Of a stretch of 24,251 nucleotides of DNA, positions 735 to 19,652 are shown one piece after another. The translations under genes were made by a program, and so were the position numbers. The notes under the pieces were generated by a model that saw only the letters and a list, made by a program, of their open reading frames with translations, searched no databases and was not told where the DNA came from. The DNA is from Pirellulaceae bacterium (GTDB lineage Bacteria > Planctomycetota > Planctomycetia > Pirellulales > Pirellulaceae). Numbering within the stretch: the stretch's first letter is position 1; each line of letters opens with the position of its first letter. The DNA is taken from contig JAGFJK010000232.1 of assembly GCA_024102795.1 (NCBI GenBank), forward strand, positions 1 to 24,251, written 5' to 3'.

Positions 735-2114
735 CTACTGCTCCGCGGCCGCGCGGACACAGTACAACCGGTCGCCGCGGCGAAGGACCAACTGGTCTCC
801 AGCCGCCGCGACCGCGTACAGGACCGGTCCGCCAAAACCCATCGCATCCGGCCGGCCCGCCGTTCCTTCCGGCCGCTCGGCATCCCACAACCGGTTTTCG
901 CTCACCTTGGTAAACTCCGCGGCCGACTTCAAGACGCTGGTCGTGCCGTCGCGCCCGAACAGGTAAACGTGCGGACCGGCGGCCAGCGGCGTGGCCCAGA
1001 CGCTTCCCGCAGTTCGTTCGGCGTAGCGTTCCTCGCCGGTCGCCAGGTCCAGGCAATAAACCACTCCCGCGCGGCTCACAAAATACGCCAGGCCAGCGTG
1101 GGCCAGCGGTGATCCGAACGAACAGGTGGCCTTTTCCGCTCGCCAGACAAAACGGGCTCGAAATTGCCCGTCCTCGCCGCGCTCGATTTGAACCAGCCCG
1201 TTCGACTCCGCCGCCCCGCGGCCGCCCGCGTCGCCGCCCTCGCCCCGCCCCTCGGTCGCTCCGATCAGAAACCGTCCGTTGTCCACCGGGATCGGCGTGG
1301 GAGTGGAGTTGTTGGCAATCTGGTCGAACAGCCAGAGCCGCCGACCCGTGGCCGGGTCCACACCGGCCAGGCGACCGATGCCGCTCAGCACCAGGTGGTC
1401 GCCGCCAACCACCGGCACCACGCGAGGGCTGGCCCAGGAGGTCGCTCCCAATCCCTCGGCCTTCCACAACGTCTCGCCCGTTGCTTTGGCCACCGCCAGC
1501 AGGTACGGTTCGGTCTGCCTTTCGATCCAGACAAACACCTGCTTGTCGTCCTGTTCCAGCGACGCGGCCAGTCCGTGCCGGGAATCGATCGGGCCGTATT
1601 CCTTGACCAGGTCGCGCTGCCAGCGCAGCTGGCCGTCATGCGTCAAGGACAGCAAGTTGCCGCCCTCGAACAACACGTACAAGCCATCGGCATCCACCAC
1701 GGGGCTGGGCGCCGCCTTGCTGACATAGTTGTTGTTTTCGGCCTGCGACGCGGCAGCCTGGTCGTACTGCCAGAGCTTCTCGCCGCTGGCTAGCTCGAAC
1801 GCGGCGACGTGGCAGTTCTCTTTCATGCCGCCCGACACCGAAGTCACGAACACTCGTCCATCCCAGATCACCGGACTGGACTGGCCGTAGCCTGGCAGCG
1901 GTACCGACCAGGCGATATTCTGGGTCGGCGACCAGACCCGCGGCAGTTTTTCGCTCGCGCTGCGCTCCAGGCGCGGGGGCCCTTGAAAACCCGTCCAGTG
2001 CTCCGCCGCCCAGCAGGCTGCCGGCGGATGGCTTGCCGTCTGGCAAACCACCACCGCGACCGCCAGACCAACAGCGATCCGGCGGATCCGGCCCCAAGTT
2101 GAGGTGCGAGACAT
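735..2114 (-). CDS. Secreted PQQ-like beta-propeller repeat protein (BamB/PQQ-enzyme-repeat family)
   Basis: The 459-aa ORF has an N-terminal signal peptide (RIRRIAVGLAVAVVVCQTASHP). Repeated motifs spaced about 40 aa apart (G-LY/V-G-DG-LY-ALDA-TGE-LW) are typical of PQQ/WD-like beta-propellers. The gene ends 4 nt before the csp start and runs in the same direction. Confidence 0.8.
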   Translation of the reverse strand: MSRTSTWGRIRRIAVGLAVAVVVCQTASHPPAACWAAEHWTGFQGPPRLERSASEKLPRVWSPTQNIAWSVPLPGYGQSSPVIWDGRVFVTSVSGGMKENCHVAAFELASGEKLWQYDQAAASQAENNNYVSKAAPSPVVDADGLYVLFEGGNLLSLTHDGQLRWQRDLVKEYGPIDSRHGLAASLEQDDKQVFVWIERQTEPYLLAVAKATGETLWKAEGLGATSWASPRVVPVVGGDHLVLSGIGRLAGVDPATGRRLWLFDQIANNSTPTPIPVDNGRFLIGATEGRGEGGDAGGRGAAESNGLVQIERGEDGQFRARFVWRAEKATCSFGSPLAHAGLAYFVSRAGVVYCLDLATGEERYAERTAGSVWATPLAAGPHVYLFGRDGTTSVLKSAAEFTKVSENRLWDAERPEGTAGRPDAMGFGGPVLYAVAAAGDQLVLRRGDRLYCVRAAAEQ

Positions 2115-2252
2115 TGGATGTTCCTCGTGTCGGTCTTGACGGACGGTGTTCCTGGAATCTCGAGTCTGGCATTCAATGTAACCGGCAGCGCAGGCGAGGC
2201 AATGCCGGTAACCAGTTCCCGTCCTGGCGATGCGGGGTAAGTTCCTGCCCTC

Positions 2253-2290
2253 GCTACTTTCGCCATAGTCGCCTTTCGCTCCGCGAAAGT
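2253..2290. repeat. Short dispersed palindromic repeat, inverted copy (GCTACTTTCGC-CATAGTCGCCTTTCGCTCCGCGAAAGT)
   Basis: Its reverse complement, ACTTTCGCGGAGCGAAAGGCGACTATGGCGAAAGTAGC, matches the direct copy at 2361-2392 and the copy at 7997-8029. Both local copies are preceded by CTGCCCTCGCT, and the core carries an internal hairpin CTTTCGC-GGA-GCGAAAG. Confidence 0.7.
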
Positions 2291-2360
2291 TGCGGAATGC
2301 GCGAACCGGGCCCGCGAATCGCCAACAGCCGATCGTGAGACCCCAACCGCTGCCCTCGCT

Positions 2361-2411
2361 ACTTTCGCGGAGCGAAAGGCGACAATAGCGGAGCGGAAGG
2401 CAACACTGGCG
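2361..2411. repeat. Short dispersed palindromic repeat, direct copy plus a degenerate tandem half-copy
   Basis: ACTTTCGCGGAGCGAAAGGCGACAATAGCG is followed by a degenerate half-copy, GAGCGGAAGGCAACACTGGCG. It is nearly identical to 8000-8029. The repeat lies between the helicase stop (2413) and the PQQ-protein start (2114). Confidence 0.7.
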
Positions 2412-2412
2412 C

Positions 2413-4563
2413 TCAATACTCCCAGACTGTGTGGTAGGCCCCGATCAGCTCAAAGTACTCCAGCAACCGGTGGTAGAACGGATGCCCGGCAATCGTGGCG
2501 CTGTCCCCGACAACGATCAGCTTGCGGCGAGCGCGCGTCAAGGCGACGTTCATCCGCCGCGTGTCGGCCAGAAAGCCGATCTCGCCCGTGCTGTTGGAGC
2601 GGACCAGCGAAATGATGATCGCCTCCTTTTCACGACCCTGGAAACCGTCCACGCTGTCGACTTCCAGCCCGGCGTGCCGCAGTTGCTGCCGCAGCAGGCG
2701 GACCTGGGCCGCGTAGGGCGTGATCACGCCAAGCTGCGTGGCCGGCAGGCCGGCGGCCAGCAACTCCTCGGCCTGCCGCACGACGAACTCCGCCTCGCGC
2801 AGGTTCAAGCGGCTCTCGCCGTCCGCCTCCTGTTGTTCGTCATAACCCGCGCCCGCCGTATCGATAAAGTGTACTGGCGAGGTAGACAGTTCCGTGGCCT
2901 GCACGCCGGGCAAGCCCTGCCGCGGCCGTTCAACGCTGGCCAGCAGATGCTCTCGCACGCTGTCGTCCGCCACCAGGCTGCCTTCGTAGAATTCGTCTGA
3001 CGAAAACTCCATGATCTGCTGATGCATGCGGTATTGGCGGGTGAGCTGGCGTGCCAGCCGGGGTCCTTCGCGGTCCATCAACCGTTCCAGCAGGCTGACG
3101 CCGAACCCTTCGCGGGCGGCCGGCTGAGAGACCACGGTCGGCGGCAACTGGCAATGGTCGCCGGCCAGGATCAAGCGTTCGCAGCGCAGCAGCACGGTCC
3201 AGCAGCCAGGCTCCGTGGTCTGGCACGCTTCATCGACCACCGCCAGGTCGAATCTCCGCTGGCCGAGATGCCGGGAGTCGAGCCCGGTGGTGGTGGCGCA
3301 GATCACCGTGGCCTGGTCCAGGATCTGCTGGACGGCCTGGCGTTCCAGCCGGCGAGCGTCGTCGAGCAGCGTGCGGGCCTCGTCGCGCATTTCCCGCTTG
3401 GCTCCCGGCAGCGGTTTGGCCCGCGTGTACCGCGACGCGCGATCCCGCAAGCCGTCGGCCTGCCGGATCAGCTTCTGAGCAAGGCGCGCGTCGGGGTGCT
3501 TGTCCACCAGGTAATCCAGCGTGGCGTCGCGCAAGTGCGGCAGCACCCGGGCCGGATGCCCCAGGCGCACGGCGCGTTCCCCGTGGCTCAGCAGCCGTTC
3601 CAGCATGTTGTCCACACCCAGGTTACTGGGCGCGCAGGCCAGCACCTGTTCGCCGCGCAGCACGGCCTGGCGGATCAGTTCCACCACCGTCGTCGTCTTG
3701 CCGGTACCGGGCGGACCATGAATCAGCGCCGTGTCCACGGCCGACAACGCGAACCCGACCGCCTCGCGCTGCGGCTCATTCAACGACTGGTCCAAAATGG
3801 CCAGCGGAACCTTCAGCGGCTGGAAACGGAACTGGCCGCCCTCGACCAGCAACTGCCGCAACTCGGCCAGGCGGTCCCCGCGCGCCGCGGCCGCTCGCTG
3901 CAACGCCTCGCGCTGCCGGCGGCGAGCGACTTCGTCGAACGCCAGGTCCACTCGGAACGTGCTTTCGCCCAGCTCCTCCGGCTCCTGCTCGAACGCTACC
4001 TGCACTAGCTTGCCTTGCCGCCGGCTGATCACGCCCCGCCAGTTCGCGCGAGGCGTTTCGACTTCGGGTGACAGGACGACCGGCGAACCGGCGTCGAGTC
4101 GCGTCCAGGGCAGCTCCTCGCGGTCCTTGCGGACCAGCGTCACCAGCGTGCGGTTGCCCAGCCCCGCCTCGATGTCCTCGACCACCAGACGGATCAGCGT
4201 GGTCCCGGCCCGCTGCGCGTCCTCGCCGGACATCCGCTGCGTGGCCAGCAGCAACTGCTCGGCCTCCGCCTCGGCTTCCATGTCCAGCAGGCGAGCCAGT
4301 CGCTGAAAGTGGTCTTCGTCTCCCGGCTTCTTGGCGATCTGGTACCAGGCTCGGATATGGTAGTGGTCCAGTTGCGTGCCATCGAGCGCCCGCACCAGAT
4401 CGTCCAGCGACCGTTGCGGCACCTCGATCGTCGCCTCGCGGCCGTGAACCTCGATCGCTCCCAGCTTGGCCTTGGCAATGCCGCCGACCTGCACCAGCAG
4501 ACGGACCAGCGTCCCGCGCGTGGTGCGGGGCGGGAGCGAGCCAAGATGCAGGAGAGCGTTCAC
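2413..4563 (-). CDS. Superfamily-1 helicase of the Upf1/IGHMBP2/DNA2-like family with an N-terminal DbpA-like RNA-binding domain
   Basis: Over 716 aa the protein shows Walker A (GPPGTGKTTT), Walker B/motif II (VVDEACQ), LILAGDHCQLPPTV (motif III), and the C-terminal motifs VDGFQGREKEAIIIS and TRARRKLIVVG (motifs V/VI). The N-terminal 80 aa (GTLVRLLVQVGGIAKAKLGAIEVHGREATIEVPQ) resemble the DbpA RNA-binding fold. Confidence 0.85.
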   Translation of the reverse strand: MNALLHLGSLPPRTTRGTLVRLLVQVGGIAKAKLGAIEVHGREATIEVPQRSLDDLVRALDGTQLDHYHIRAWYQIAKKPGDEDHFQRLARLLDMEAEAEAEQLLLATQRMSGEDAQRAGTTLIRLVVEDIEAGLGNRTLVTLVRKDREELPWTRLDAGSPVVLSPEVETPRANWRGVISRRQGKLVQVAFEQEPEELGESTFRVDLAFDEVARRRQREALQRAAAARGDRLAELRQLLVEGGQFRFQPLKVPLAILDQSLNEPQREAVGFALSAVDTALIHGPPGTGKTTTVVELIRQAVLRGEQVLACAPSNLGVDNMLERLLSHGERAVRLGHPARVLPHLRDATLDYLVDKHPDARLAQKLIRQADGLRDRASRYTRAKPLPGAKREMRDEARTLLDDARRLERQAVQQILDQATVICATTTGLDSRHLGQRRFDLAVVDEACQTTEPGCWTVLLRCERLILAGDHCQLPPTVVSQPAAREGFGVSLLERLMDREGPRLARQLTRQYRMHQQIMEFSSDEFYEGSLVADDSVREHLLASVERPRQGLPGVQATELSTSPVHFIDTAGAGYDEQQEADGESRLNLREAEFVVRQAEELLAAGLPATQLGVITPYAAQVRLLRQQLRHAGLEVDSVDGFQGREKEAIIISLVRSNSTGEIGFLADTRRMNVALTRARRKLIVVGDSATIAGHPFYHRLLEYFELIGAYHTVWEY

Positions 4564-4601: not shown

Positions 4602-5411
4602 CTACCAGTGCATGACCTGGCCGCCATCGACGTTCAGAGTTTGACCCGTGATGTTACGCGCTCGCGGCGAAGCCAGGAAGACGGCCAGCGCCGCCACGTC
4701 CTCCGGGTCCTGCCAGCGGCCCAGTGGCGTCACGCGACGGATCTTCTCCTCGGCCCACTGCTGGTACGACTGCCGCCGCTCGGCCGGCTGCCGCTCGCTC
4801 CAGGCCTCCCACACCGACCGGTTCAGTTCGGTCCGGATCATGCCCGGACAGATCGTGTTCACTCGGACATCGTAGGCCGCCAGATCCTTGGCGGCACACT
4901 GAGCGAAATTGATCACGGCGGCCTTGGCCGCACTGTACGGCGGGTCGGTCTGCGAACCGATCTGGCCCGCGATCGAAGACAGCAGCAGCAGTGTGCCGCG
5001 CCGGGCTTCGATCCAGTGCGGCACGACGGCGTGCGTCACATGCACCGCTCCCAGCAGGTTCACTCGCCACACCCGGTCCCAGTCCGCGGGCTCCAGATTC
5101 CAGAACGGAAACCCATACTTGCCCGAACCGGCGCCCGCGGCGTAGACCGCGTGGGTGCAACCGCCCCACCGCCGCAGCACCTGGTCGATGACGCGTTGCA
5201 CCGCCGCGTAGTCGGTCGCGTCGGCTTCGATGCTGTAAACGTCTTCTGGGCTTTTGGCGCGCAGCGTTCGAGCCGATTCATGCACAGCCGGCCGGACATC
5301 GACCGCGGCCACTCGGCAGCCCTGCCCGGCAAACTCGTCGGCAATCGCTCGCCCGATCCCGCTGGCCGCTCCCACCACCAGCGCCACGTCGCCATCAAGT
5401 TGCAGATCCAT
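4602..5411 (-). CDS. Short-chain dehydrogenase/reductase (SDR) family oxidoreductase
   Basis: An ATG at 5411 starts MDLQLDGDVALVVGAASGIGRAIA, which carries the TGxxxGxG NAD(P)-binding motif. The catalytic YxxxK (YSAAK) and an NAG-like motif are present. The track ORF start at 5447 is a TTG 12 codons upstream and is the less likely start. Confidence 0.85.
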   Translation of the reverse strand: MDLQLDGDVALVVGAASGIGRAIADEFAGQGCRVAAVDVRPAVHESARTLRAKSPEDVYSIEADATDYAAVQRVIDQVLRRWGGCTHAVYAAGAGSGKYGFPFWNLEPADWDRVWRVNLLGAVHVTHAVVPHWIEARRGTLLLLSSIAGQIGSQTDPPYSAAKAAVINFAQCAAKDLAAYDVRVNTICPGMIRTELNRSVWEAWSERQPAERRQSYQQWAEEKIRRVTPLGRWQDPEDVAALAVFLASPRARNITGQTLNVDGGQVMHW

Positions 5412-5801
5412 GCCGACAAGTCCTTTGAAACCGGGAGCCTGGCGCAATTCAGTTTGCCTCAGACAGTTACTATATTCATCTTACCCACCAGCAACGGCGA
5501 GGTGGTGTTAGGGCCTGCCATACAATAAGTTTGCGAATCGTGGTCGTTGTGAAATTGCCAATGCTGGCTCTCGATCCGCAGGTGCCTCGGGTACCTCATC
5601 GACCACAATCTGTTCCGCATTCAAAGGCTCCACTTGATGTCCCTCGGGCTCCCTCCCCGGCTTCCGAGATCGTGCAGCCTTTAAGTTGAATTAAAGCAGT
5701 GGTTTACGGTGGGGCGCCACCGTTTGAGGTCGAAACGTTCAAAAATCCTCGCATTTCGACTTCTGGCGCTGTCTTTACGCCGCAGGCGTTAAACAACCCA
5801 G

Positions 5802-5833
5802 CCCAGGGTCGCCCGCTTCGGGCGCACCCTGGG
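5802..5833. other. Very stable GC-rich hairpin in an intergenic region (14-bp stem with a 1-nt bulge and a triloop)
   Basis: CCCAGGGT-CGCCCG-CTT-CGGGCG-C-ACCCTGGG. The outer 8 bp and inner 6 bp are perfectly complementary. No U-tract follows on either strand, so this is not a classic intrinsic terminator. Confidence 0.6.
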
Positions 5834-5924
5834 TACACGAAAGCCTTGAGGCCCCTTTACGCCGAAGGCGTTGCACAAGGCGCCTTGTGGAACATCGGCG
5901 GCGCGCGGGAGTTCTCGAAATCAT

Positions 5925-6010
5925 CGTCACGCCCAGTTTCACGGGCTGGAAGCCCATGCTACGTGTACGTCACGCCCAGAATCACGGGCTGGAAGCCCAT
6001 GCTACGTGCC
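5925..6010. repeat. 43-bp direct tandem repeat, 2 copies, each containing a hairpin
   Basis: Copy 1 at 5925-5967 is CGTCACGCCCAGTTTCACGGGCTGGAAGCCCATGCTACGTGTA and copy 2 at 5968-6010 is CGTCACGCCCAGAATCACGGGCTGGAAGCCCATGCTACGTGCC, about 93% identical. Each unit carries CACGGGCU-GGA-AGCCCAUG, an 8-bp stem with one G-U pair. Confidence 0.85.
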
Positions 6011-6077
6011 AAATCGACCCCAGAGGTCAATGGTCCTGTCGGCTGCGGAAGCCGTGAGCCCGCCGCCTCCATGCGCG

Positions 6078-6443
6078 TCACGGCGGCGTGCACAGTTCAA
6101 TGGTGTGCCCGTCCGGATCCTGCAGAAAGACCTGGTACGCGCCATCGGGACGAGTGCGGCGGGGCTGATAGGCCACTCCCAGTCGCTGCAAGTGCCGCTC
6201 CCAGGCATCCAGGTCGTCGACCATCAGGGCGTAGTGGTTTCCGCGACTGGCTGAAACAACCGGTTGCTGCCGGTCGCCAATCAGGTGCAGCTCCTGATCG
6301 CTGCCCAACTGAAACCAGGCGCCCGGAAAGCTGAACGCCGGCCGAGGCAGCTCGGCCAGTTGCAGCACCTCGCGGTAGAACTGACAACTGCGCGGGACGT
6401 CTTGCACGTGCAGGGCCACGTGGTTGAGTTGCAGAGTCTTCAT
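6078..6443 (-). CDS. VOC-family (glyoxalase/bleomycin-resistance/dioxygenase fold) protein
   Basis: The 121-aa ORF begins MKTLQLNHVALHVQDVPRSCQFYREVLQL, a typical VOC N-terminus with a metal-binding His. The C-terminal HxxE-like residues (DPDGHTIELC) are present. Confidence 0.8.
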   Translation of the reverse strand: MKTLQLNHVALHVQDVPRSCQFYREVLQLAELPRPAFSFPGAWFQLGSDQELHLIGDRQQPVVSASRGNHYALMVDDLDAWERHLQRLGVAYQPRRTRPDGAYQVFLQDPDGHTIELCTPP

Positions 6444-6469
6444 GGGTGAGTCGTTCCTCGATCGTTCCT

Positions 6470-8056
6470 CTATCGAGCGGGCGGTGGCGATCCGGCGGCC
6501 AGCAGCGGGTCGCCCGCCGCTCGCTGCTCGGCCTCCAACTGCGTTCGCAACAGTCCGAACCGCTCGGCGTGTCGCGGATCGGCCGACAAATCGCGCAGTT
6601 CCAGCGGGTCCTGCCGCAGATCGAACATCTGGTAACGTTTGGCCTGGGGATAATGGATCAACTTCCAGCGGTCGTCGCGGATCATCCGCTGCGAGTCGCG
6701 GAAGTAGCAGAACACGTGCGCGTAGAGCGAGTCTTCCTCGCCCCGCAGTACGGGCAGCATGCTGCGCCCCTCGACCTGCCGCGGTACCTCAATGCCGCAC
6801 AACTGGCACACCGTCGGATATAGATCGCGGAGGTAGACCTGGGCGTCGCGGCGGACGCCCGCGGGCAGTCCCGAGCCGGCCAGCACCAGCGGCACGCCCA
6901 CCGTATGCTCGTACATGTTCTGCTTGCCGCGCAGCCCGTGGCTGCCGATCGCCAGGCCATGATCGGCCGTGAACACGATCAGCGTGTCTTCCAGCCGGCC
7001 CGCGTCGCGCAGGGCGTCGAAAATGCGGCCGATCTGCTGGTCCAGGTGGGCGATCACGGCGTAATACACGGCCAGCTCCGCGCGCACGTCCTCGGCCGTC
7101 CGCGGCCAAGGCCAGAGCTGTTCGTCACGGCCGCGCAAGTTGCCATGGTCGAACGGATGCTCGGCCAGAAAATTCCCCGGCAGCGGCATCCGCTCGGGCG
7201 GATACTGGTCGCGGAAGCCAGGCGGCCAGAGCAGCGGATCGTGCGGGGCCGTGAAGTTGACGTGCAGGAAGAACGGCCGCTCGCCGGGACGACGAATCAG
7301 CTCGATCGCCGCGTCGGCGAACCGTCGGCTGATGTCGGGAGTCAGTCCCACGCCGTGTGCCGGAAACAACTGGCCGTCGTCGGTCTGAAAGATCCAGCCG
7401 CGATAGCCCGTCACTTCATGTCCGTTGGCGTCCTGCCGCGGTTGCCAGAACTGGCCGCCCCCGCCCGCGTACAAACCGCGGCTCTCCTCGTAGCCTCGCA
7501 AGTTCGGGCGGCCGTCGTTGTGCCACTTGCCCACGTACCAGGTGTGGTAGCCCGCCTGCCGCATGGTGTGAGCCCAGGTGGGTAACGACGGGTCAATCTG
7601 CCGAGCGAAATCCAGCACGCCGTTGCGGAAGCCGCTGCAGCCGGACAGGATCTCCGCGCGGCTGGGTGTGCAGATCGGGTTGGGGCAGACGGCACGAGTC
7701 ATCAACACGCCTCGGCGAGCCAGCGTGTCCAGGTGCGGCGTCTTGATCGGCGCCTGGTTCAGGATGCCCAGCGCATCCGGCCGCATGTCGTCGGCCACCA
7801 GCAACAGCACGTTAGGCCTCGGCCGCTGTTCGGCCAGCGCGGTTCTGGCCGCCCACGGCAGATGGGCCAGAAGTAGCCCGGCCAGCAGTGGTGCGAGGAA
7901 GCAGCGGGCGAGTGGCGTGCCGGTTGCGGTGCGCGCCGCGGGCGAGGCGGGAAGGAGGCTTGAAGAAGTGTTGGGGTGAAGCGTGCGCCGGGGCACGCTA
8001 CTTTCGCGGAGCGAAAGGCGACAATGCCGGGGCGAAAGGCGACAATGGCGCGTCAT
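6470..8056 (-). CDS. Sulfatase (formylglycine-dependent arylsulfatase family), secreted. The start codon is uncertain, and the annotated N-terminus overlaps a repeat element.
   Basis: It has the sulfatase signature [11 protein letters not shown] (C-x-P-x-R), [11 protein letters not shown] metal-binding residues, and GKWH, a signal-peptide-like hydrophobic stretch ([26 protein letters not shown]). The ATG at 8056 overlaps the upstream ABC ATPase stop as ATGA, but the first 20 or so codons translate the dispersed repeat ([12 protein letters not shown]), so the true start may lie downstream. Confidence 0.82.
7997..8050. repeat. Short dispersed palindromic repeat, direct copy plus a half-copy, preceded by the hairpin GCGTGC-GCCGGG-GCACGC
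   Basis: GCTACTTTCGCGGAGCGAAAGGCGACAATGCCG is followed by GGGCGAAAGGCGACAATGGCG. It is nearly identical to 2361-2392. It sits at the junction between the ABC ATPase and the sulfatase. Confidence 0.7.
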
Positions 8057-9150
8057 AGCGCGGCTCCTGTGTCGTTGTCGAACAGGTGAGCGTGGGTGGC
8101 GTGGAAGTGCAGCGTGAGCTGATCGCCGCGCTGGAACCGCTGGTGCGAGTCCACTCGCACAACCAGCTCATGCGCTCCGCAGACCGCGTCCAGGATCGTC
8201 TCCGCTCCCAGCGGCTGAGCCACCACGACCTGGCCCGAGGCGGAGCTCCACCCGCCTTCCCGCGCCGCGCCGTTGCCGCAGGCCATGTGTTCGGGCCGGA
8301 TCCCCAGCGTCACCCGCTTGCCGGCCCAGGGACGGTAACGCTCTTGCCGCTCGGCCGGCAGCTCCAGCGCCAGCGACTCGGTGCGGAACGTCCAGCGGTC
8401 CTGTTCCACCCGCAGCTCGCCCTCCAGAAAGTTCATCGGCGGGCTGCCGATAAACTCGGCCACGAACTTGTTTCGCGGTGCGTCGTAGACTTCGAGCGGC
8501 CGGCCCACCTGTTGAATCCGGCCCTGGTGCATGACCACGATGCGGTGCCCCATCATCATCGCCTCGGTCTGGTCGTGCGTCACATGGATGCTGGTCGTCT
8601 GCAGCCGCTGGTGCAGCTTGACCAGTTCGGTCCGCATGGTCACTCGCAGCCGGGCGTCGAGGTTGCTGAGCGGTTCGTCGAACAGGAACACGGCCGGATC
8701 GCGGACAATGGCCCGCCCGACCGCGACCCGCTGCCGTTCGCCGCCGGACAGTTGCGCCGGTTTGCGGTGCAGCAGGCCCTCGATACCCAGGATGGCCGCC
8801 GCCGCCCGCACGCGCTGGTCGATCTGGGCGCGCGGGACGCGCCGCATCCTCAGGCCGAACGCCATGTTCTTGTAGACGTTCATGTGCGGATACAAAGCGT
8901 AGTTCTGAAAGACCATGGCGATGTTGCGGTGGCGGGGCGCGACATGGTTCACGACCTGCGGCCCGATCTGGATGGTGCCGCCGTCCAGATCCTCGAGCCC
9001 CGCGATCAGCCGCAGCGTGGTCGATTTTCCGCAGCCCGAAGGTCCGACCAGCACCAGCAGTTCGCCGTCCTCGACGCGCAAGCTCATGTCCTCGACCGCC
9101 GTCGTTTGACCATACCGCTTGGTGACGTTCTGCAGCGTGACTTCCGCCAT
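8053..9150 (-). CDS. ABC transporter ATP-binding protein of the MalK/UgpC type with a C-terminal TOBE-like domain. It is an orphan, with no permease or solute-binding protein adjacent.
   Basis: An ATG at 9150 starts [14 protein letters not shown]. Walker A (GPSGCGKST), ABC signature ([10 protein letters not shown]), Walker B ([11 protein letters not shown]) and H-loop (THD) are present. The 712-aa track ORF extends it artificially across the plus-strand PilT gene. Confidence 0.85.
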
Positions 9151-9336
9151 CGGCAACTGCTGGTTTCCGAGATGTTCTGGCAGGTCGCGGCCGTTTCCGC
9201 CAACTCGGCCCCTGCGCCCGCGGCCGCCCCAATGTAACATAGAGCCTGGCCCACAACCGCTACCCTTGACCAGCTCCGGCGCGGTCGGCCCGTGCCCCCC
9301 CTGCCCCGCGGAGACTCGACGCGAGATGAGTGAACG

Positions 9337-10413
9337 ATGAGCGGACAAACCGTCGCAACAACCGAACCGGTTCCCGACCGGTTGCGGCAGTGGTTGGCCG
9401 CGGCCGTGCGGCAGGAGGCGTCGGACCTGCACCTGGTGCCGCATTATCCGCCCATGCTGCGGGTCCACGGCCTGCTGGTGCCGATCGAGGAGGCCGAACT
9501 GCCCGCGGACGAGGTGACTCGGCTGCTGGCGGCCGTCTGCTCGCCGCGCAACCAGCAGCGGTTCGAGAGCCAGAAGAACATCGACTTCTCGCTGGACGTG
9601 GAGTTGCCCGGCGGCCGGCGGCGGTTCCGCGCCAACTACTTTCTCAGCGGCGGGCAACCTGGCGCCTGTTTCCGAGTCATCCCCGACTCGATTCCCAGTT
9701 TCGACTGGGCCGGCTTTCCCTGGGAGGTGGCCGAACGCCTGGCCCACTTCCGCAATGGCCTGGTGCTGGTGTCCGGCGTGGCCGGCTCCGGCAAGACCAC
9801 CACGCTGGCCATGATCATCCACCTGCTCAACCAGGAAGGCGGCTACCGGATCATCACCGTGGAGGAGCCGGTCGAGTATCTGTTTCCTCGCATGCCGGGC
9901 TCGCTGGTCACCCAGCGCGAAGTGGGCGAGGATGTGGCCTCGTTCGCCGATGGTCTCAAGTACGGGCTCCGCCAGGATCCCGACGTGATCCTGGTGGGCG
10001 AGATCCGCGACCAGGAAACCGCGCAAATGGCGCTCAGCGCGGCCGAGACGGGACACCTGGTCTTCGCCACCTTGCACACGCGCGACGCCAAGGGCGCCAT
10101 CTCCCGCTACGCCGACGTGTTCCCTCAGCACGTCCAGGCCGATGTCCGGGCCCAGTTGGCGCTCAGCCTGCGGGCGGTGATCAGCCAGCACCTGCTGCCG
10201 GGCATCCGGCCGGGCGAGAAGCGCGAGCTGGCGCTGGAAATCCTCTACAACACGGCCCCGATTGCCAGCGGCATTCGTCTGGGCAAGCTGGAGTCGATCG
10301 ACAACAACATCCTGACCGGCCGCGCTCAGGGCATGATCACGCTGGCCGAATCCGTCAAGCGGCTGCTGGCCGCCGGGCGGATCACGCGAGCCACGGCCGA
10401 ACGCTTCGACTGA
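9337..10413 (+). CDS. pilT: Type IV pilus retraction ATPase PilT-family protein (twitching-motility ATPase family). It is an orphan.
   Basis: The 358-aa ORF has Walker A (GVAGSGKTT), Asp box/Walker B ([10 protein letters not shown]), a His box (ATLHT) and a PilT N-terminal domain (LHL...PMLRVHG). No other pilus genes are in the window. Confidence 0.8.
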
Positions 10414-11146: not shown

Positions 11147-14100
11147 CTACGACTGCTGGTGGGTACCGGTTCCGGCCTGGGTCCGCGTGCCGGGCTGCCG
11201 CTGGCTGGCGCCCTCCAGGTCGCCGATCAGCACGCGGTAGCTCGCCAGGCACTGCTCCAGCGACTCGCGCAACTGCCGGATATCGGACTGCTGTTGCTGG
11301 GACGCGGACAGCAGCGGCTGCAGCCAGGACTGCATCAGTTCGAACTGGCTGTGCATCACGTCCAGGATGGAGCGGGGCACTTTGTGCATGACCGAGATGC
11401 GCTGCAAGGGGCGATTCGTGTCGACCGGGACCGCTCCGGTGGTGAGCGCCCGCAGCTCCTCGCTCAGCTTCAGCATGGCGTCGGCGGCCAGCGCCGCGGC
11501 CCCGTGCGACGGGTCGTGCGAGTTCCCGTCCGCGGGCCGCTCGGCGACGGCCGCCGACAGCGCCTGGCCGATCGACTGCAGTCCTTCGCGGACCGCACCG
11601 ACATTGTCGACCAGTTCTCGCAGTTGCTGCTGCTGTTGCTGTTCGGTCGCGCCGCGGTCCCCGGCCAGCGCGGTGATGCCATCCGAGAGCGTCTGGCGGA
11701 GATGGTGCAGGCCATCGCTGAACGAACTGAGCTGGGCCACGACCAGGCCGACCTTATCGTCCGGGGCCACGCCCCGCAGCTTGACGTTCTGCTGGAACGT
11801 GCGGCAGATCTCCTCCCAGCGGCGGGCCTCGGCCGGACTGAGCAGCCCCAGCATTTCCTTCAGCTTCAGCAGATTCGACTCGGTGTCCGAAGTCAGCGTC
11901 TGGGCGTCGTTTTCATAGCTGGAGAGGATGAGCGTTTCCAGTTCCTGGTCATTCATGATCGGCACGACCCGCTCGGCGATGCGGTTCATGTTGCGGTACG
12001 AGCCCTGCAGCTTGAACGGCGGTTCGGTCCGGTAGTCGTCGGACTGGGCGGCCGAGCGGATGTACTGGCGGTTGACCCGCAGGATGACGTCCCGCACGCG
12101 GAGCAGCTTTTTCATCGTGGCGACCATCTCGTCGAGTTCCTCGAGCGAGTAGTTGCCTTCCAGTTCGATCCCCTCGCGGGCATCGCGCTGGGCCATTTTG
12201 ATCACGGCATAGACGTCCTGCTGGCTGCGGCTGGCCAGCTTGTTCAGGACCGGGTTGCTGGTCAGGGCGTTCTCCAGATAACTCAGCTCGAACGCCTCGG
12301 CCGTGTCGCCGATGATTTCCCCCAGGTTGTAGACGTCGGCCCGGTTCGAGAGCATGTCGGGAATCTGGAACCGCTGCCCGCTTTCGGTGTAGGGGTTGCC
12401 GGCCATCACCACCACCACCTTCCGACCTCGCAGGTCGTAGGTCCGCGTGTGGCCCTTGTACACGCCTTCGATCTTCCGCTGGGCATCGCAAAGTGAAATG
12501 AACTTCTGCAGCAGTTCGGCGTTGCAGTGCTGGATGTCATCCAGGTAGATCATCACGTTGTCGCCCATCTCGAAAGCCAGGTTCAGCTTCTCGACCTCCT
12601 CGCGGGCCGCCGCGTTGGGCGCCTCGGCCGGATCGAGCGACGTCAGCCGGTGCCCCAGGGCCGGGCCGTTGATCTTCATGAAGATGATGCCCAGGCGATT
12701 GGCAATGTATTCCATCAGGGTCGTCTTGCCGTAGCCCGGCGGCGAGACCACCAGCAGCAGGCCCATCAAATCGGTCCGCTTCTGTTCGCCGACCACGCCG
12801 ATCTGCTTGGCCAGGTTGTCGCCGATCAGCGGCAGGTAGACCGAGTCGATCAGCCGGTTGCGGACGAACGAGGTCAGCACGCGGGGCCGGAACTCCTCCA
12901 GGCGCATGTCGGCGCGGGCCTGTTCGAGCAGTTGCTTCTTGAGCTGCACGGACTGCTGGAAGCGGGGAACCACCTGGGTGGCGAACGCGTGGAGCTTGCG
13001 GAGGAATTGGTTGTAATGCAGCCGGTAGCGCCCGCTTTCGATGACCTGGTGGACGCCGGCCAGTCCGGTCAACTCCCGCTCGGCGTGCCCCTCGACAATC
13101 AGCGCCGGATCGAACTTGCCGCGCAGCAGCAGCAACGCCAGTTCATCGGCGAATTCGCCGCGCTGGCCGGCCGACTGGCCGGCGGGTTGACTGGCCGATT
13201 GGCCGGCGGACTGGCCCGCCGCCTGTTGCTGGATGAAGGCCCGCGCCCAGTCGCGCAGCAGCACGAAACGTCCCCGCGCGTCGCCCTGCACGGCGGCCAG
13301 CGACTGCTGGAAGTGGGCGGAGTAGTTGTTCACCCTCAGGTGACGCTCGAACGCCTCGCACAGTTCGGCGGCCGTCCGGCTGACGACAAAATCCTGGCGG
13401 CCGCTGAGTTCGAGGAACAGGTATTCGGCCGCTTCCTCCACCAGGTCATCCGGGAACAGTTCCCAGCGGAGGCAGAAATCCCGCAGCAGCTCGCCGAGTT
13501 CCGCCACGTAGTGCGCCCGCTCGGTGGCTTGCGGGAACAGCCGGGCGACGGTGCCGGCTCCGCGGAGCTTGTCGGCCCAGGTGCCGCGACGGTCCGGGTC
13601 CACGAACAGCAGCCAGCCGCAGACGGCCAGGGCCCGGGCCCGCGTGTCGAAGCGCAACAGGCCCAGCTCGGACTGCATTTCCAGCAGGGCCGTGAGGATC
13701 TTCGCGGCGTCCTGGTCGCTGACGCCCTTGACGTACGATTCGTCGTAGCGGGGCGCCATGAACTGCTGCACCAGGGCCAGCCGATCCTCGGCCGCCAAAC
13801 GCAGCACGCGCTCCTGCTCGGCCGGCGGTTGCGCTCGCAGTTGTTCGAACAGCAGCCAGGCCAGGTATTCGCCGCGATAGACTTGCCGGTTCTCGCTGAC
13901 CAGCAGTTGATCCCAAACCTCGCGCGTGGCCAACAGCCGCTCGTCCCGAATCGGCTCGAAGAACCGCGTGCCGGTCAGGTGCAGGCACAATTGATCCTCG
14001 TGCAGGACGCACGTCAGATCCAGGGCCTGGACGTTGACCGAGAAATTGTGGCGGCCCAGGCGGATCACGTTCTCGCCGCCGACGAACAGCTCGCGGCGGT

Positions 14101-16627
14101 CCTTCAACTGGCGGACGGCATCCTCGCGGATCGTCTTCAGCCGGCTCTGGATGTCGTCCACCTTGACCGAATCGTCCAGTTCCTGCAGTTGCCGCACGAG
14201 ATCCCGGACCTTGTCGATCATCAGGTCGGCGGCGAAGTAGGCGTGAATCTCGTTGACGGTCTGCAGTTGATCGACGCGGGACTTGATGCCCTTGAGGATC
14301 CGATCGGCCGCTCCGCTCAGCGCCGCGGCCCGCCGGTTACGGGCCTCCACCAGTTGCAGCTTGCGGGTTTCAAACGCCGCGTAGACTTCCTCCCGCTTGT
14401 CGGTCAACTGCCCGACAAACTCGTCGAATTCCGCGAACCGCCCTTCCAGCTCCTCGATCTGCACCATCAGCCTGGTGAGGAACTCCTCGCACTTCTCCGC
14501 CGTGTCGGCGATGTCCAGGTAGTTGACGACGGCCTGGCCGAGCAGTTTCAGTTGCGAGGTGAATTCGGCGACCCCTTCCACCGCCAGCAGCTCGCGGATC
14601 TTGGTCTTCAGTGCCGCGCGGGCCACGTTGACCTGCGAGAAGATCGTGGAGATGTTGTCGATGATCCGCGTCCGCTGCGTGGCGTCGTCGATCTTCAGAT
14701 TGCCGACCACGTCGATCAACATTTCCAGTTCGCCGGCCGACTGCTGCACCTGCTCCTCCAGCGCCCGAGCGTCGGTGACCTTCTTCAGGCCCTCGACCGC
14801 CTGCTGCTGGTCCGCCACGCGACGCGCGTAGGGTGCCAGGGCATCGTCGCGCAGCAGGAAAGCCACGCAGCGGCGGGCGAGCTGGTCGGACTGCTGGACC
14901 ACCTGCTGCTCCAGGTGCTCGATGCGGGCCGTGTCGGCGTAGCGCAGGTCCCGCAGCGCGACGATCTCGCCGCGGGATTGCCGCAGGCGGCCCAGCGCGG
15001 CGACGAACTCCAGGATCTGCTCGAACCGCTGGCGGTGGATCGCGGCCAGGTTGCTGGCCGTCTCCTGCTCGATACGCGCCATCTGGCTGGCCGTGTTCTG
15101 CTTGACGCGGACGACCTTCTCGAACTCGTTGACGGCCGACGCGGCGGCCTCCTTGATCTGTTGCAGCACCTCCTTCAGCTGGAACGTTTCGGGTTTGTCC
15201 AGCCAGAAATACGAGTCGATGATGTCCTGCGACAGCTTGACCAGGTCGACGTACAGGTCGGCGTAGGTGTCTTCCTTGTCGATCAGGGCCAGCAGCTCGT
15301 GGCACTCCGCCATGCCCCGCACGATGTCGCGGTTGCCGATCTTGTAGAGCAGCGAGTCGGATTGCTGGACCGGCACGTAGCTTTCGCCGACGTAAGGAGT
15401 GCGCCAGATCTGGATGGCGTGGTGCTTCTGCGGCTCCTCGTGGCGTTTGAAGCAAGTCAGCTCGCCGCCCTCGAACAGCGTGAAGCCGTGACAGACCAGC
15501 GGCGTGTCGACCCGCTGTTCGATCACGTTGTAGCGCAGCAGCACGTAGCTGCCTTGCTCGCGGTTGGTGAAGACGTACAGGTAGTCTTCGCCGTTGGGAG
15601 CGACGATCCGCCGTTCGAACTGCATCCCCTGCTGGTCGCTCTCGAACGTCTTGTACTGGCCGTTCTGCAGGTAGTAGCCGTTGGCGAAGATCAGTCCCTG
15701 GTCGTCCGGCAGCAGCACGCAGGCGTGGGCGATAGAATCGATGCGGCGGGCCGTGCGGGTCTTTTCGTTGTAGACGATGTGCCGGAAGTCGCGCTCCTGG
15801 TAGGGGCGGATCTTCAGCAGGATGATATGCCCGACGATGGCATAGTAGATCTCGGCATCGTCCAGCGTCTGGTCGGCATTGTCGACGTCCTCGCGGTAGA
15901 TGCCTTCGCCCGAATCGGTGTTGTTTTCGATCTTGATCGTCAGGTCGCCGCCCACGGTTTCCACGAACAGCCGGTCGCGGATCGAGATGTGGGGAAACCT
16001 GCCGGCCTGGTGGGCGTCGCGCGTGGTGCGGATCCACTCGAAGTCGTGCTGCGGCGGGTTCCGCACTTCATGATCGCTGCGGTTGTCGACGTATTCCAGC
16101 CGGTCGTCCCGCCGCAGCCACTTGAGCGCCTTGATGTCGGCGGCCGTCTTGCCCACCTGGAACACCAGGTACAGGTAGGGTCCCTGGCTGAAGAAGCGGG
16201 CGAACTGCGACGTCTTGTAGTAGCGGTAAATCTCGCGGAACTCCCGCCCGAACTGCTCGTTGCCCAGCAGGTCCAGCGACAGTTCGTGAAACGTGCCCTC
16301 GGCGAACCGATAGACCGAGAACACGTCGGCCAGCTCCGTTTCGGTCTTCAGGCCCAGGTGCACGTTGTAGCCGAACAGAAACACCTGGCCGAAGGCGACC
16401 ATGTCCCGCGGCACGCAGTTGTGCGCCGTGGTGATCCGCTCGGTGCCCAGCAGGGCCATATCGATCGAACCGAAGACCTCCTTGCGGGCGGCGTTGAGCT
16501 GCTGCAGCCGGCCGCGCAACTGGCCGGCCTGCGCCAGCAGCCGCTGGCGGATGATCTCGTAGGTTCCGCCTTCCAGCGCCGCCGCGGCGGAGCCTTCGGG
16601 CGTTTGAGGCGAGTCGGCTTGAGCCAT
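11147..16627 (-). CDS. Giant (1826 aa) uncharacterized protein with an N-terminal beta-rich region, extensive coiled coil, a MoxR/AAA_5-like AAA+ ATPase domain and a Q-rich C-terminus
   Basis: An ATG at 16627 has a GGGGAG Shine-Dalgarno-like motif 8 nt upstream and lies 16 nt after the flotillin stop. Walker A is LLVVSPPGYGKTTL (nt about 12719-12745). Walker B is VMIYLDDIQH (nt about 12535-12550). A sensor-1-like VVVMAGNP and IPDMLSNRADV resemble the MoxR-type LPEALLDRF motif. Residues 480-1000 are heptad-rich (EQ/LR-rich) coiled coil. Confidence 0.85.
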   Translation of the reverse strand: MAQADSPQTPEGSAAAALEGGTYEIIRQRLLAQAGQLRGRLQQLNAARKEVFGSIDMALLGTERITTAHNCVPRDMVAFGQVFLFGYNVHLGLKTETELADVFSVYRFAEGTFHELSLDLLGNEQFGREFREIYRYYKTSQFARFFSQGPYLYLVFQVGKTAADIKALKWLRRDDRLEYVDNRSDHEVRNPPQHDFEWIRTTRDAHQAGRFPHISIRDRLFVETVGGDLTIKIENNTDSGEGIYREDVDNADQTLDDAEIYYAIVGHIILLKIRPYQERDFRHIVYNEKTRTARRIDSIAHACVLLPDDQGLIFANGYYLQNGQYKTFESDQQGMQFERRIVAPNGEDYLYVFTNREQGSYVLLRYNVIEQRVDTPLVCHGFTLFEGGELTCFKRHEEPQKHHAIQIWRTPYVGESYVPVQQSDSLLYKIGNRDIVRGMAECHELLALIDKEDTYADLYVDLVKLSQDIIDSYFWLDKPETFQLKEVLQQIKEAAASAVNEFEKVVRVKQNTASQMARIEQETASNLAAIHRQRFEQILEFVAALGRLRQSRGEIVALRDLRYADTARIEHLEQQVVQQSDQLARRCVAFLLRDDALAPYARRVADQQQAVEGLKKVTDARALEEQVQQSAGELEMLIDVVGNLKIDDATQRTRIIDNISTIFSQVNVARAALKTKIRELLAVEGVAEFTSQLKLLGQAVVNYLDIADTAEKCEEFLTRLMVQIEELEGRFAEFDEFVGQLTDKREEVYAAFETRKLQLVEARNRRAAALSGAADRILKGIKSRVDQLQTVNEIHAYFAADLMIDKVRDLVRQLQELDDSVKVDDIQSRLKTIREDAVRQLKDRRELFVGGENVIRLGRHNFSVNVQALDLTCVLHEDQLCLHLTGTRFFEPIRDERLLATREVWDQLLVSENRQVYRGEYLAWLLFEQLRAQPPAEQERVLRLAAEDRLALVQQFMAPRYDESYVKGVSDQDAAKILTALLEMQSELGLLRFDTRARALAVCGWLLFVDPDRRGTWADKLRGAGTVARLFPQATERAHYVAELGELLRDFCLRWELFPDDLVEEAAEYLFLELSGRQDFVVSRTAAELCEAFERHLRVNNYSAHFQQSLAAVQGDARGRFVLLRDWARAFIQQQAAGQSAGQSASQPAGQSAGQRGEFADELALLLLRGKFDPALIVEGHAERELTGLAGVHQVIESGRYRLHYNQFLRKLHAFATQVVPRFQQSVQLKKQLLEQARADMRLEEFRPRVLTSFVRNRLIDSVYLPLIGDNLAKQIGVVGEQKRTDLMGLLLVVSPPGYGKTTLMEYIANRLGIIFMKINGPALGHRLTSLDPAEAPNAAAREEVEKLNLAFEMGDNVMIYLDDIQHCNAELLQKFISLCDAQRKIEGVYKGHTRTYDLRGRKVVVVMAGNPYTESGQRFQIPDMLSNRADVYNLGEIIGDTAEAFELSYLENALTSNPVLNKLASRSQQDVYAVIKMAQRDAREGIELEGNYSLEELDEMVATMKKLLRVRDVILRVNRQYIRSAAQSDDYRTEPPFKLQGSYRNMNRIAERVVPIMNDQELETLILSSYENDAQTLTSDTESNLLKLKEMLGLLSPAEARRWEEICRTFQQNVKLRGVAPDDKVGLVVAQLSSFSDGLHHLRQTLSDGITALAGDRGATEQQQQQQLRELVDNVGAVREGLQSIGQALSAAVAERPADGNSHDPSHGAAALAADAMLKLSEELRALTTGAVPVDTNRPLQRISVMHKVPRSILDVMHSQFELMQSWLQPLLSASQQQQSDIRQLRESLEQCLASYRVLIGDLEGASQRQPGTRTQAGTGTHQQS
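13163..13222. repeat. In-frame imperfect 12-nt tandem repeat (about 5 units) inside the giant CDS, encoding (A/P)GQS repeats
   Basis: The units are CTGGCCGGCCGA, CTGGCCGGCGGGTTGA, CTGGCCGATTGGCCGGCGGA and CTGGCCCGCCGC. On the minus strand they translate to QQAAGQSAGQSASQPAGQSAGQR, a low-complexity linker. Confidence 0.7.
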
Positions 16628-16643
16628 GCGGCGTACTCCCCAG

Positions 16644-18746: not shown

Positions 18747-18756
18747 GAACAAGTCC

Positions 18757-19374
18757 TCAGTTGGCTTTCGAGATCAGATACGTACGTGACTCGTGGTCGT
18801 AGTCGACGATTTCCGCGCGATCTCCTTTCGCCAGCGTCCCTGCCACCGTCCGCACATCCAGCAGCAGCGGAGCTCCATCGGTCTGGAACCGGGCTTGCCC
18901 GGATTCCGAGGTGGCCTCCCAGGTCGACACCTCGCAGTACTTTCCAATCAGGCTTTCCGCCGTGTATTCCGGCGGTTGATCAAACACGTGGATCAGGGGT
19001 TGCGTGGCCAGCTTGGTCAGCACGACACTCAAGGCCACGTTCCTCAACAGAAACTGCGAAATATGCCACCAGCCCGGTTCGTACTGGGCCTCGTCCCAGA
19101 GAAACCAGAAGAACATCGACAGCACCCACAGGATCGCGGCGAATACGCTGACCCAGACCATCAGCGGCACGCGACCCAGGTTCAGGAACCGCAGCCCCAG
19201 GAACCCGACGCTGAGCGGCGAATCGGGCTGCCCGTCCAGGTCCAGGTCGAAGTCCAGGAACTCCAGGTCCAGCGCGCCGACCAGTAACAGCAGCCAGTAG
19301 CCGACCACGAGCCCCAGCAGCAGAGTCGCGGGCAGGTTGGCTCCGGTCACGCAGTGCTGCAGATACTCGTTCAT
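18757..19374 (-). CDS. NfeD-like (YqiJ-type) membrane protein with a C-terminal OB-fold domain, the usual flotillin partner
   Basis: An ATG at 19374 starts MNEYLQHCVTGANLPATLLLGLVVGYWLLLLVGALDLEFLDFDLDLDG, with TM helices. The C-terminal EVSTWEATSESGQARFQTDGAPLLLDVRTVAGTLAKGDRAEIVDYDHESRTYLI is a beta-barrel like the NfeD C-terminus. The stop lies 10 nt before the flotillin ATG. An alternative TTG start is at 19425. Confidence 0.78.
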   Translation of the reverse strand: MNEYLQHCVTGANLPATLLLGLVVGYWLLLLVGALDLEFLDFDLDLDGQPDSPLSVGFLGLRFLNLGRVPLMVWVSVFAAILWVLSMFFWFLWDEAQYEPGWWHISQFLLRNVALSVVLTKLATQPLIHVFDQPPEYTAESLIGKYCEVSTWEATSESGQARFQTDGAPLLLDVRTVAGTLAKGDRAEIVDYDHESRTYLISKAN

Positions 19375-19556: not shown

Positions 19557-19652
19557 GTGTCCTTCACCAGTGCTGCCTCGCTGACGCGTCGGGCTACATG
19601 GGTCGTGTCGTTCACCAGCGCTGCCTCCCTGGCGCGTCGGGCTACTTTCGCT
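19557..19652. repeat. 48-bp direct tandem repeat, 2 copies, related to the dispersed repeat family
   Basis: GTGTCCTTCACCAGTGCTGCCTCGCTGACGCGTCGGGCTACATGGGTC is followed by GTGTCGTTCACCAGCGCTGCCTCCCTGGCGCGTCGGGCTACTTTCGCT, about 85% identical. It contains the CTGCCTCGCT and GCTACTTTCGC motifs shared with 2245-2392 and 7997-8029. It lies upstream of the NfeD gene and overlaps the kinase 3' end. Confidence 0.75.

Follow-up and report, generated by a model that had tools for sequence, protein, structure and literature searches.

The repetitive extragenic palindromic (REP) sequences and bacterial interspersed mosaic elements (BIMEs) of Escherichia coli, together with the transposase TnpA-REP (Protein Data Bank [PDB] entry 4ER8), and the REP doublets forming hairpins (REPINs) of Pseudomonas are built on a hairpin with an unpaired four-nucleotide 5' foot. 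Their copies are dispersed, mostly extragenic and frequently located just past stop codons, and most of them form inverted doublets of fixed orientation. In so-called REPtrons, such repeats bracket the gene of the cognate REP-associated tyrosine transposase (RAYT), a one-tyrosine (Y1) enzyme with the histidine-hydrophobic-histidine (HUH), WQ, and YI..N motifs. REPs normally differ between species or genera. Table S1 of Quentin et al. (2018; PMC6006769) includes planctomycete REPtrons such as GTAG-GGTCCGC-TCC-GCGGACC of Planctomyces brasiliensis, and Di Nocera et al. (2013; PMC3733652) described the GTAG-20/21/22 REPs of Rhodopirellula baltica, in which more than one REP family and numerous genes of tyrosine transposases flanked by matching repeats were reported; our literature search on RAYTs and REPINs in Planctomycetes yielded just the two general surveys. 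Here, we analyzed a dispersed palindromic repeat in a contig of a Pirellulaceae bacterium (GenBank JAGFJK010000232.1, assembly GCA_024102795.1), a single 24,251-bp contig of a metagenome-assembled genome (MAG) with nearly all genes on the minus strand, referred to below as the window. The repeats are very probably REP elements of a planctomycete REP-RAYT system, that is, selfish or domesticated DNA and not a new regulatory system.

Repeat copies in the window and anatomy of the unit

The original prediction, made from the letters of the window alone, was that a core of about 30 bp occurs three times, once inverted and twice direct, and that degenerate half-copies follow the direct copies. Both parts of this claim were confirmed. 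The 29-nt core, GCTACTTTCGCGGAGCGAAAGGCGACAAT, was found in two exact direct copies and in one inverted copy with two mismatches (cf. Table 1), as against an expectation of zero and no match in 100 dinucleotide-preserving shuffles, and behind both direct copies lies a half-copy in tandem, a 21-nt unit that reads GGAGCGGAAGGCAACACT in the first case and GGGGCGAAAGGCGACAAT in the second. For the latter, Tandem Repeats Finder (TRF) reported a period of 21, 2.0 copies, and 95% matches. A repeat finder delimited the inverted pair as arms 2261-2294 and 2357-2390 (91% complementary and 62 nt apart) and the direct pair as 2357-2412 and 7996-8051 (89% identity over 56 nt). The first full copy is abutted by a truncated left half that is preceded by CTGCCCTC, the same flank as that found at 2350-2357, and the junction of the truncated half with the full copy, GCTACTTTC joined to CATAGTCGCC, recurs in L116, one of the related loci (designated L) considered below. 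Both repeat blocks end close to a stop codon, the first one 5 nt (2408-2412) from the helicase TGA (2413-2415) and the second one leaves 6 nt (8047-8052) to the TGA of the ABC ATPase gene (8053-8055), and both lie upstream of the next gene, which is PQQ/BamB-like and a sulfatase, respectively. The original prediction had placed every instance in a gap between the 3' end of one gene and the 5' region of the next, with which these positions in the helicase-PQQ and ABC ATPase-sulfatase gaps agree; the tandem beside the kinase gene belongs to another repeat family.

Read on the strand that carries the TCC loop, the unit is 5'-A-N-W-GTCG-C / CTTTCGC / TCC / GCGAAAG-3', i.e., an unpaired foot followed by a 7-bp stem closed by a TCC loop. 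The hairpin that had been noticed inside the core was supported by folding, since single units gave -8.3 to -9.4 kcal/mol as DNA (z about -2.9). The anticipated pairing of the two arms into a long stem-loop was likewise reproduced, with the entire cluster (2230-2415) folding as RNA into one long hairpin of -105.9 kcal/mol (z = -7.7). A conservation profile was built from 284 copies of the window and related loci, 109 of which are not exact to the search seed. In this profile, the foot residues G, T, C, and G are each conserved in 96-99% of copies (C at foot position 3 in 98%), A at position -2 in 85%, and the stem and loop positions in 92-99%. The same pattern holds among the 109 non-exact copies at a lower level (60-97% per position), and these copies contain 22 compensatory double changes of the stem, including C10-G18 to T-A (10 times) and C6-G22 to T-A (six times), so the stem shows covariation. 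The unit is a hairpin-forming short imperfect palindrome, like those of about 20-40 nt in REP/REPIN-RAYT systems, and it resembles the P. brasiliensis REP in its design, in which a foot precedes a 7-bp stem closed by TCC, with an identical loop-proximal CGC-TCC-GCG, whereas its stem and foot sequences differ from those of the published planctomycete REPtrons. Because the foot is GTCG, this main family was not assigned to the GTAG superfamily, which is defined by an unpaired GTAG tag (Di Nocera et al., 2013). Its exact sequence had no match in the indexed literature, and the window had no match in Rfam at gathering thresholds. A mir-2071 match in a permissive Rfam scan of 2180-2460 was spurious (20.5 vs. 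100 bits) and reflected only the long inverted repeat.

Table 1. Positions of repeat units and genes in the 24,251-bp window
Feature	Position	Strand	Remarks
PQQ/BamB-like gene	735-2114	-	
Truncated left REP half GCTACTTTCGC	2253-2263	+	same junction in L116
Full REP, foot ATA-GTCG-C, stem CTTTCGC, loop TCC, stem GCGAAAG, then TTGCG; left doublet arm	2265-2294	+	29-nt core at 2265-2293 (-), 2 mismatches; DNA hairpin -8.3 kcal/mol, z = -2.8
Non-repeat spacer between annotated doublet arms	2295-2357	.	72 nt core to core (2290-2361)
Full REP, foot-stem-TCC-stem on minus (coding) strand; right doublet arm	2358-2386	-	29-nt core at 2358-2386 (+), exact; -9.4 kcal/mol, z = -2.9
Degenerate tandem half-copy (foot and left arm only)	2390-2407	-	repeat family D2; ends 5 nt from helicase TGA
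SF1 (superfamily 1) helicase gene	2413-4563	-	
Short-chain dehydrogenase gene	4602-5447	-	
Second, canonical REP family, GTAG-CATGGGCT-TCC-AGCCCGTG, two tandem copies	5940-6005	-	43-nt period; TRF score 154
Sulfatase gene	6470 to about 7950	-	
Single full REP in the gap between ABC ATPase stop and sulfatase	7997-8025	-	29-nt core at 7997-8025 (+), exact match
Tandem half-copy	8029-8046	-	1 mismatch; ends 6 nt from ABC ATPase TGA
ABC ATPase gene	8053-10191	-	
Third, unrelated planctomycete repeat family, 48-nt tandem pair	19557-19652	-	repeat family D15
Kinase gene	19642-21942	-	

Dispersal in Planctomycetota and linkage to a transposase gene

A scan for an exact 22-nt core in one genome per species (185,579 species) yielded more than 113 genome stretches, and all 113 among the matches listed were from Planctomycetota; a mere local duplication would have left no further copies. 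Among the matches listed were members of Pirellulaceae, Thermoguttaceae, and Planctomycetaceae (Fuerstiella and Schlesneria), one Gemmataceae MAG, one Isosphaeraceae MAG, and a few MAGs labelled Ca. Kuenenia, for whose binning we do not vouch. The identical 22 nt are present in the orders Pirellulales, Planctomycetales, Gemmatales, and Isosphaerales. The arrangement of the copies was then counted in these stretches and the window, where 241 copies were found at up to four mismatches. Adjacent pairs have their feet outward in 83 cases and the opposite orientation in two, and 166 of the 241 copies (69%) reside in REPIN-like doublets, the inverted doublets of preferred orientation that are typical of REP/REPIN-RAYT systems. 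The doublet spacer, of 3 to 118 nt, is most commonly 6 nt long; other spacers gather at 15-20 nt, and a tail, in which the doublet of the window is found, reaches 118 nt. No internal sequence is conserved. Single units of 22-30 nt are common, and tandem half-copies like those of the window also occur in L008, L046, L102, and L105.

The gene context of the copies was derived from greedy longest-ORF (open reading frame) calls, which are noisy, as GC-rich DNA readily yields long ORFs that are spurious, and which support qualitative claims only. With this limit, repeat clusters fell within called ORFs in 37% of cases, compared with 80% for random positions. Among the 38 clusters within ORFs, 31 were less than 250 nt from the 5' end, where the start may be over-extended, or less than 150 nt from the 3' end, and 10 of the 38 repeat-containing ORFs were shorter than 125 amino acids (aa), so that the majority of these 38 cases are probably artefacts of short or over-extended calls. 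Genes whose 3' end points at the repeat frequently stop 0-20 nt away from it. A random placement in coding regions, which would have spoken against a regulatory or REP role, was therefore not observed: the copies are depleted from ORFs and often close to stop codons.

Comparison with syntenic loci revealed that the helicase-PQQ site is not always occupied. In L123, whose helicase is 64% identical to that of the window, the order dehydrogenase-helicase-PQQ is kept and the 62-nt helicase-PQQ gap contains no repeat, while in L124 (helicase 73% identical) dehydrogenase and helicase are followed by the contig end, and no repeat is present in the 84 nt past the helicase stop. The corresponding gap of the window measures 298 nt. 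Since these syntenic sites lack the repeat, the cluster of the window represents either an insertion in its lineage or a loss in the relatives.

The search for a cognate transposase started from a tblastn comparison of the related loci with a RayT query of E. coli, and the weak match obtained (E = 0.33) was taken as a lead only. The candidate enzyme is encoded by a 222-aa ORF of L007 (Roseiconus nitratireducens; 5350-6015, minus strand), which is preceded by a REP doublet at a distance of 65 nt and followed by a REP after 46 nt. It matched the NCBIfam family REP_Tyr_transpos with E = 1.1e-12 (48 bits, under the 80-bit cut-off) and Pfam Y1_Tnp with E = 1.2e-3 (19.4 bits, under the 23-bit cut-off). 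A regular-expression search for HUH...Y..NP over all locus ORFs gave one false match and missed the real RAYT, which has YI..NG. Homologues are numerous (2,037 in the database at E ≤ 1e-5), and the best 120 of the 2,037 are mostly of about 216 aa and, apart from the protein's own entry (100%), 62-76% identical to it; the named genera among these 120 are Roseiconus, Neorhodopirellula, Laterigemmans, Stieleria, Blastopirellula, and Rhodopirellula. An alignment of 17 homologues shows no or hardly any variation in PNHVHL (the HUH motif), FWQQEPFDH..R, and Y..L..YI..N. When the profile of this alignment was compared with the PDB, the best match was E. coli TnpA-REP (4er8_A, E = 0.029), with the HUH, WQ, and YI..N motifs aligned, and a Foldseek search with an AlphaFold model also placed 4er8_A on top (E = 3.7e-4, probability 1.0), followed by the IS200, IS608, and ISDra2 transposases. 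The protein thus combines an HUH motif, a catalytic tyrosine, the RAYT-specific WQ motif, and a predicted HUH fold with family scores under the thresholds, and, as part of the REP-RAYT reading, it is very probably a conserved RAYT-type HUH/tyrosine transposase of about 216 aa.

The residues of E. coli TnpA-REP reported to contact the GTAG guide are W94, Q95, E100, H101, and R104. In the planctomycete protein, the counterparts of W, H, and R are invariant and identical, and E100 is replaced by D, as was also reported for RAYT subclasses 2.5 and 2.7. For Q95, the counterpart is doubtful, as the profile alignment pairs this residue with the latter of the two glutamines in the invariant WQQ. By its motif signature (NHVH, WQ, YI[RA][DE]N[GP], and D for E100), the enzyme looks closest to subclass 2.7 or 2.4 and not to 2.2, which is a motif comparison and not a phylogeny. 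With about 216 aa, it is longer than the E. coli TnpA-REP chain 4er8_A (165 aa); in the sequence alignment, nothing in 4ER8 corresponds to the initial ~116 positions of the profile, and in the model several helices precede the HUH strand.

The association of this gene with the repeat was followed in eight independent homologues from different assemblies (L007, L114, L115, L116, L117, L120, L121, and L122; L118 contains the L117 protein in another sample), and in 8/8 the gene is bracketed by the repeat on both sides, mostly at about 5-110 nt, which constitutes a REPtron arrangement. In the seven loci other than L007, the called start codon is separated from the upstream doublet or cluster by 5-45 nt, the exception being L120 with a single unit at about 140 nt, and the downstream unit either overlaps the stop codon or follows it by 0-40 nt. 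In three loci of the set, the TAG stop is located within the foot (ATAGTCGCC). As no other copy of the repeat was found in the stretches of L120 and L121 (20 kb each) or L122 (12.5 kb), the association is not an effect of repeat density. Moreover, all four flanking arms of L117 bear the same compensatory C-G to T-A stem variant. The Foldseek matches 2-30 share the Y1 HUH fold of the IS200/IS605 family (IS608, ISDra2), whose members transpose as single strands, and the mechanism in common would be that subterminal DNA hairpins are recognised. Unlike in those elements, the repeats vastly outnumber the gene, both gene flanks consist of the same hairpin instead of distinct left and right ends, and the protein has the WQ and YI..N motifs that mark RAYTs. 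A truncated transposase remnant of about 111 aa (58% identity) was also observed between REP copies in a Pirellulales MAG (L102, 3248-3580).

Origin of the repeats and alternative explanations

The suggestion in the original prediction of a lineage-specific REP/BIME-like element agrees well with the phylum-restricted dispersal, the fixed-orientation doublets, the depletion from ORFs, and the transposase flanking in 8/8 genomes. By analogy with E. coli TnpA-REP and with IS608 of the IS200/IS605 family, the substrate of the HUH/tyrosine (Y1) transposase would be single-stranded DNA, on which the enzyme would bind the hairpin in its folded state plus the unpaired foot on the 5' side, and would cut and rejoin at the bound repeat. 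Single units and, chiefly, inverted doublets (REPINs) would in this way be dispersed into intergenic DNA, with truncated and tandem half-copies as by-products of the spread. In the window, one doublet with partial units would have been inserted between the helicase and PQQ genes, while the gap from the ABC ATPase gene to the sulfatase gene contains a lone unit and its half-copy. Such mobilisation would be in keeping with the repeat-free syntenic sites of L123 and L124, which bear on it indirectly. Given the position behind stop codons and the stable fold, a secondary role at the RNA level (3'-end formation or mRNA protection) is plausible.

Several points weigh against this assignment. The case is known from sequence and predicted structure, and the copy counts are for locus stretches. 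The 24-kb contig of the window contains no RAYT gene, and the scores of the transposase fall short of the curated cut-offs in both Pfam and NCBIfam. The first lead to it was the weak match of the E. coli query, later validated with NCBIfam, Pfam, PDB, and Foldseek, and its AlphaFold model is of moderate quality (mean pLDDT [predicted local distance difference test] 68, TM-score about 0.4-0.5 to 4ER8). The foot is GTCG, as compared with GT[AG]G of classical REPs. Finally, a 22-nt core that is near-identical over several orders is unusual for REPs, the classical ones being species- or genus-specific, and it could mean selection at the host level instead of, or besides, transposase-driven spread. 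A stronger version of this idea, about which we are doubtful, is that an ancient, vertically co-inherited REPIN-RAYT pair, with a GTCG foot and a transposase maintained at 61-76% identity, has been kept across at least four planctomycete orders, implying a host-level function and not merely selfish spread, for example the shaping of mRNA 3' ends in a phylum with seemingly few canonical intrinsic terminators.

If selection on the host were the main explanation, the repeats would primarily be RNA elements, i.e., post-stop hairpins acting as terminators or protectors of mRNA 3' ends, and the linkage to the transposase would be secondary. Copies do frequently begin 0-20 nt past stop codons, the RNA fold of 2230-2415 is very stable, and a near-invariant sequence over the phylum fits functional selection; such roles were also hypothesised for REPs of other bacteria in a passage of Di Nocera et al. 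(PMC3733652). However, an intrinsic terminator would consist of a GC-rich hairpin and a T/U tract, and the hairpin is not followed by a T tract: none was found at either repeat locus, and scans of these loci for promoter and terminator consensus sequences found nothing. Single copies beside stop codons lean toward one orientation relative to the mRNA (15 vs. 6), but this bias is not significant. An RNA structure would allow far more change than is seen in the loop and foot, which are 94-99% fixed, nor would there be a reason for the transposase bracketing in 8/8 genomes and the tandem half-copies, and Rfam contains no matching family. We regard a primarily host-selected RNA element as improbable.

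Our assignment to a REP-RAYT system was also weighed against two further explanations. According to one of them, raised in the original prediction, a transcription factor regulon would use the repeats as operators, and the inverted pair at 2265-2386 would be two operators that control the downstream gene. The repeats are indeed palindromic and in the window precede the PQQ and sulfatase genes, but among the stretches, gene 3' ends face the repeat as frequently as 5' ends do, with 14 convergent, 35 tandem, and 16 divergent flanking pairs, and this arrangement is unlike that of a promoter-proximal operator. The neighbouring genes are unrelated from one locus to another, the two arms are anywhere from 3 to 118 nt apart, many half-copies are seen, either truncated or in tandem, and syntenic relatives lack the site; we regard the operator and regulon proposal as highly improbable. 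Even less credence can be given to the other explanation, a classical miniature inverted-repeat transposable element (MITE) derived from an insertion sequence with a DDE transposase and having terminal inverted repeats and target-site duplications. A short, dispersed, intergenic inverted-repeat structure would suit such an element, but many copies are lone units of 22-30 nt, the spacer of the doublets varies and no internal sequence is conserved, no parent DDE element was seen, and the only consistently linked transposase is a Y1 HUH enzyme.

Other repeat families and implications of the REP elements

The window holds two more repeat families. The second one, consisting of hairpins at 5940-5962 and 5983-6005 (minus strand; within 5925-6008), is a canonical REP family that carries the GTAG tag. 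It lies in a stretch of roughly 1 kb (5448-6469) without a Pfam-supported gene and has relatives with compensatory stem changes in L059, L103, and L018. The third family is the 48-nt tandem near the kinase gene, which the original prediction had related to the core. This was correct only for about 15 nt at 19641-19655, where GCTACTTTCGCTCCG, the sole half-REP-like stretch of the tandem, overlaps the kinase stop codon; the tandem as such belongs to a different planctomycete family, TAGCCCGACGCGCAAGCGAGGGC ... GCCCTCGCTTGCGCGTCGGGCTA, that is also present in L031 (3300-3370 and 6060-6130), L054 (3645-3715), and L098 (2295-2360). It forms long palindromes in Schlesneria MAGs and an unstructured tandem in the window (z = +1.6). 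The tandem was rejected as a member of the main family, as it matches the TAGCCCGACGCGCAAGCGAGGGC palindromic family and does not fold. Elsewhere, further short palindromic families with GGA/TCC-type or similar loops adjoin the main REP, e.g., CGTTCCCACGCGGGAGCGTGGGAACGAG and GTAG-CACGGCAC-TCC-GTGCCGTG; they were observed in L041 (about 7570-7615 and 7720-7750), L111 (about 4840-4885), L103 (about 3950-3990), and L082 (about 3900-4060). TCC-loop hairpins outside the main family show a modest excess over those with other loops, from which we claim nothing. An unrelated observation concerns 16626-19151, where long overlapping ORFs of 841 aa (plus strand) and 702 aa (minus strand) have no Pfam match; this region has internal 75-87-nt repeats (families D1 and D3) and a strong AT skew of -0.46 at 17001-18000, and its ORF may encode a repetitive coiled-coil-like protein beside the 1,826-aa DUF3686/AAA ATPase gene (11147-16627).

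Translated REPs can pad ORFs, as in the window. The sulfatase ORF may be continued across the REP (7996-8056) as far as an ATG that overlaps the ABC ATPase TGA (ATGA), which gives a REP-encoded peptide. A GTG start at 7996 or a later codon is probably likelier than the ATG at 8056, and the annotated N-terminus is doubtful. Similarly, the kinase C-terminus ends in ...PPPERK-stop, its last codons and TAG coming from the half-REP-like GGAGCGAAAGTAG (19642-19656). Recognising the REP would clean up gene calls and the choice of start codons in planctomycetes. The repeat also matters for assembly, as short-read assemblies break at it and planctomycete assemblies are fragmented: L119, an independent short-read assembly of the same sequence (Logan assembly of SRR13799154), ends inside the REP at 2265-2294, at about position 2286 of the window.

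No new kind of system is revealed by these data. The type of system is already known, and what is unusual in the planctomycete family is the GTCG foot, the longer transposase, and the near-identity of 22 nt across orders. As regards mechanism, the recognition of the guide tetranucleotide by RAYTs could be studied with GTCG as a naturally occurring foot variant. As regards evolution, with the same 22 nt in four orders and a transposase as conserved as housekeeping proteins, the family provides a test case for the persistence of a REP-RAYT pair.

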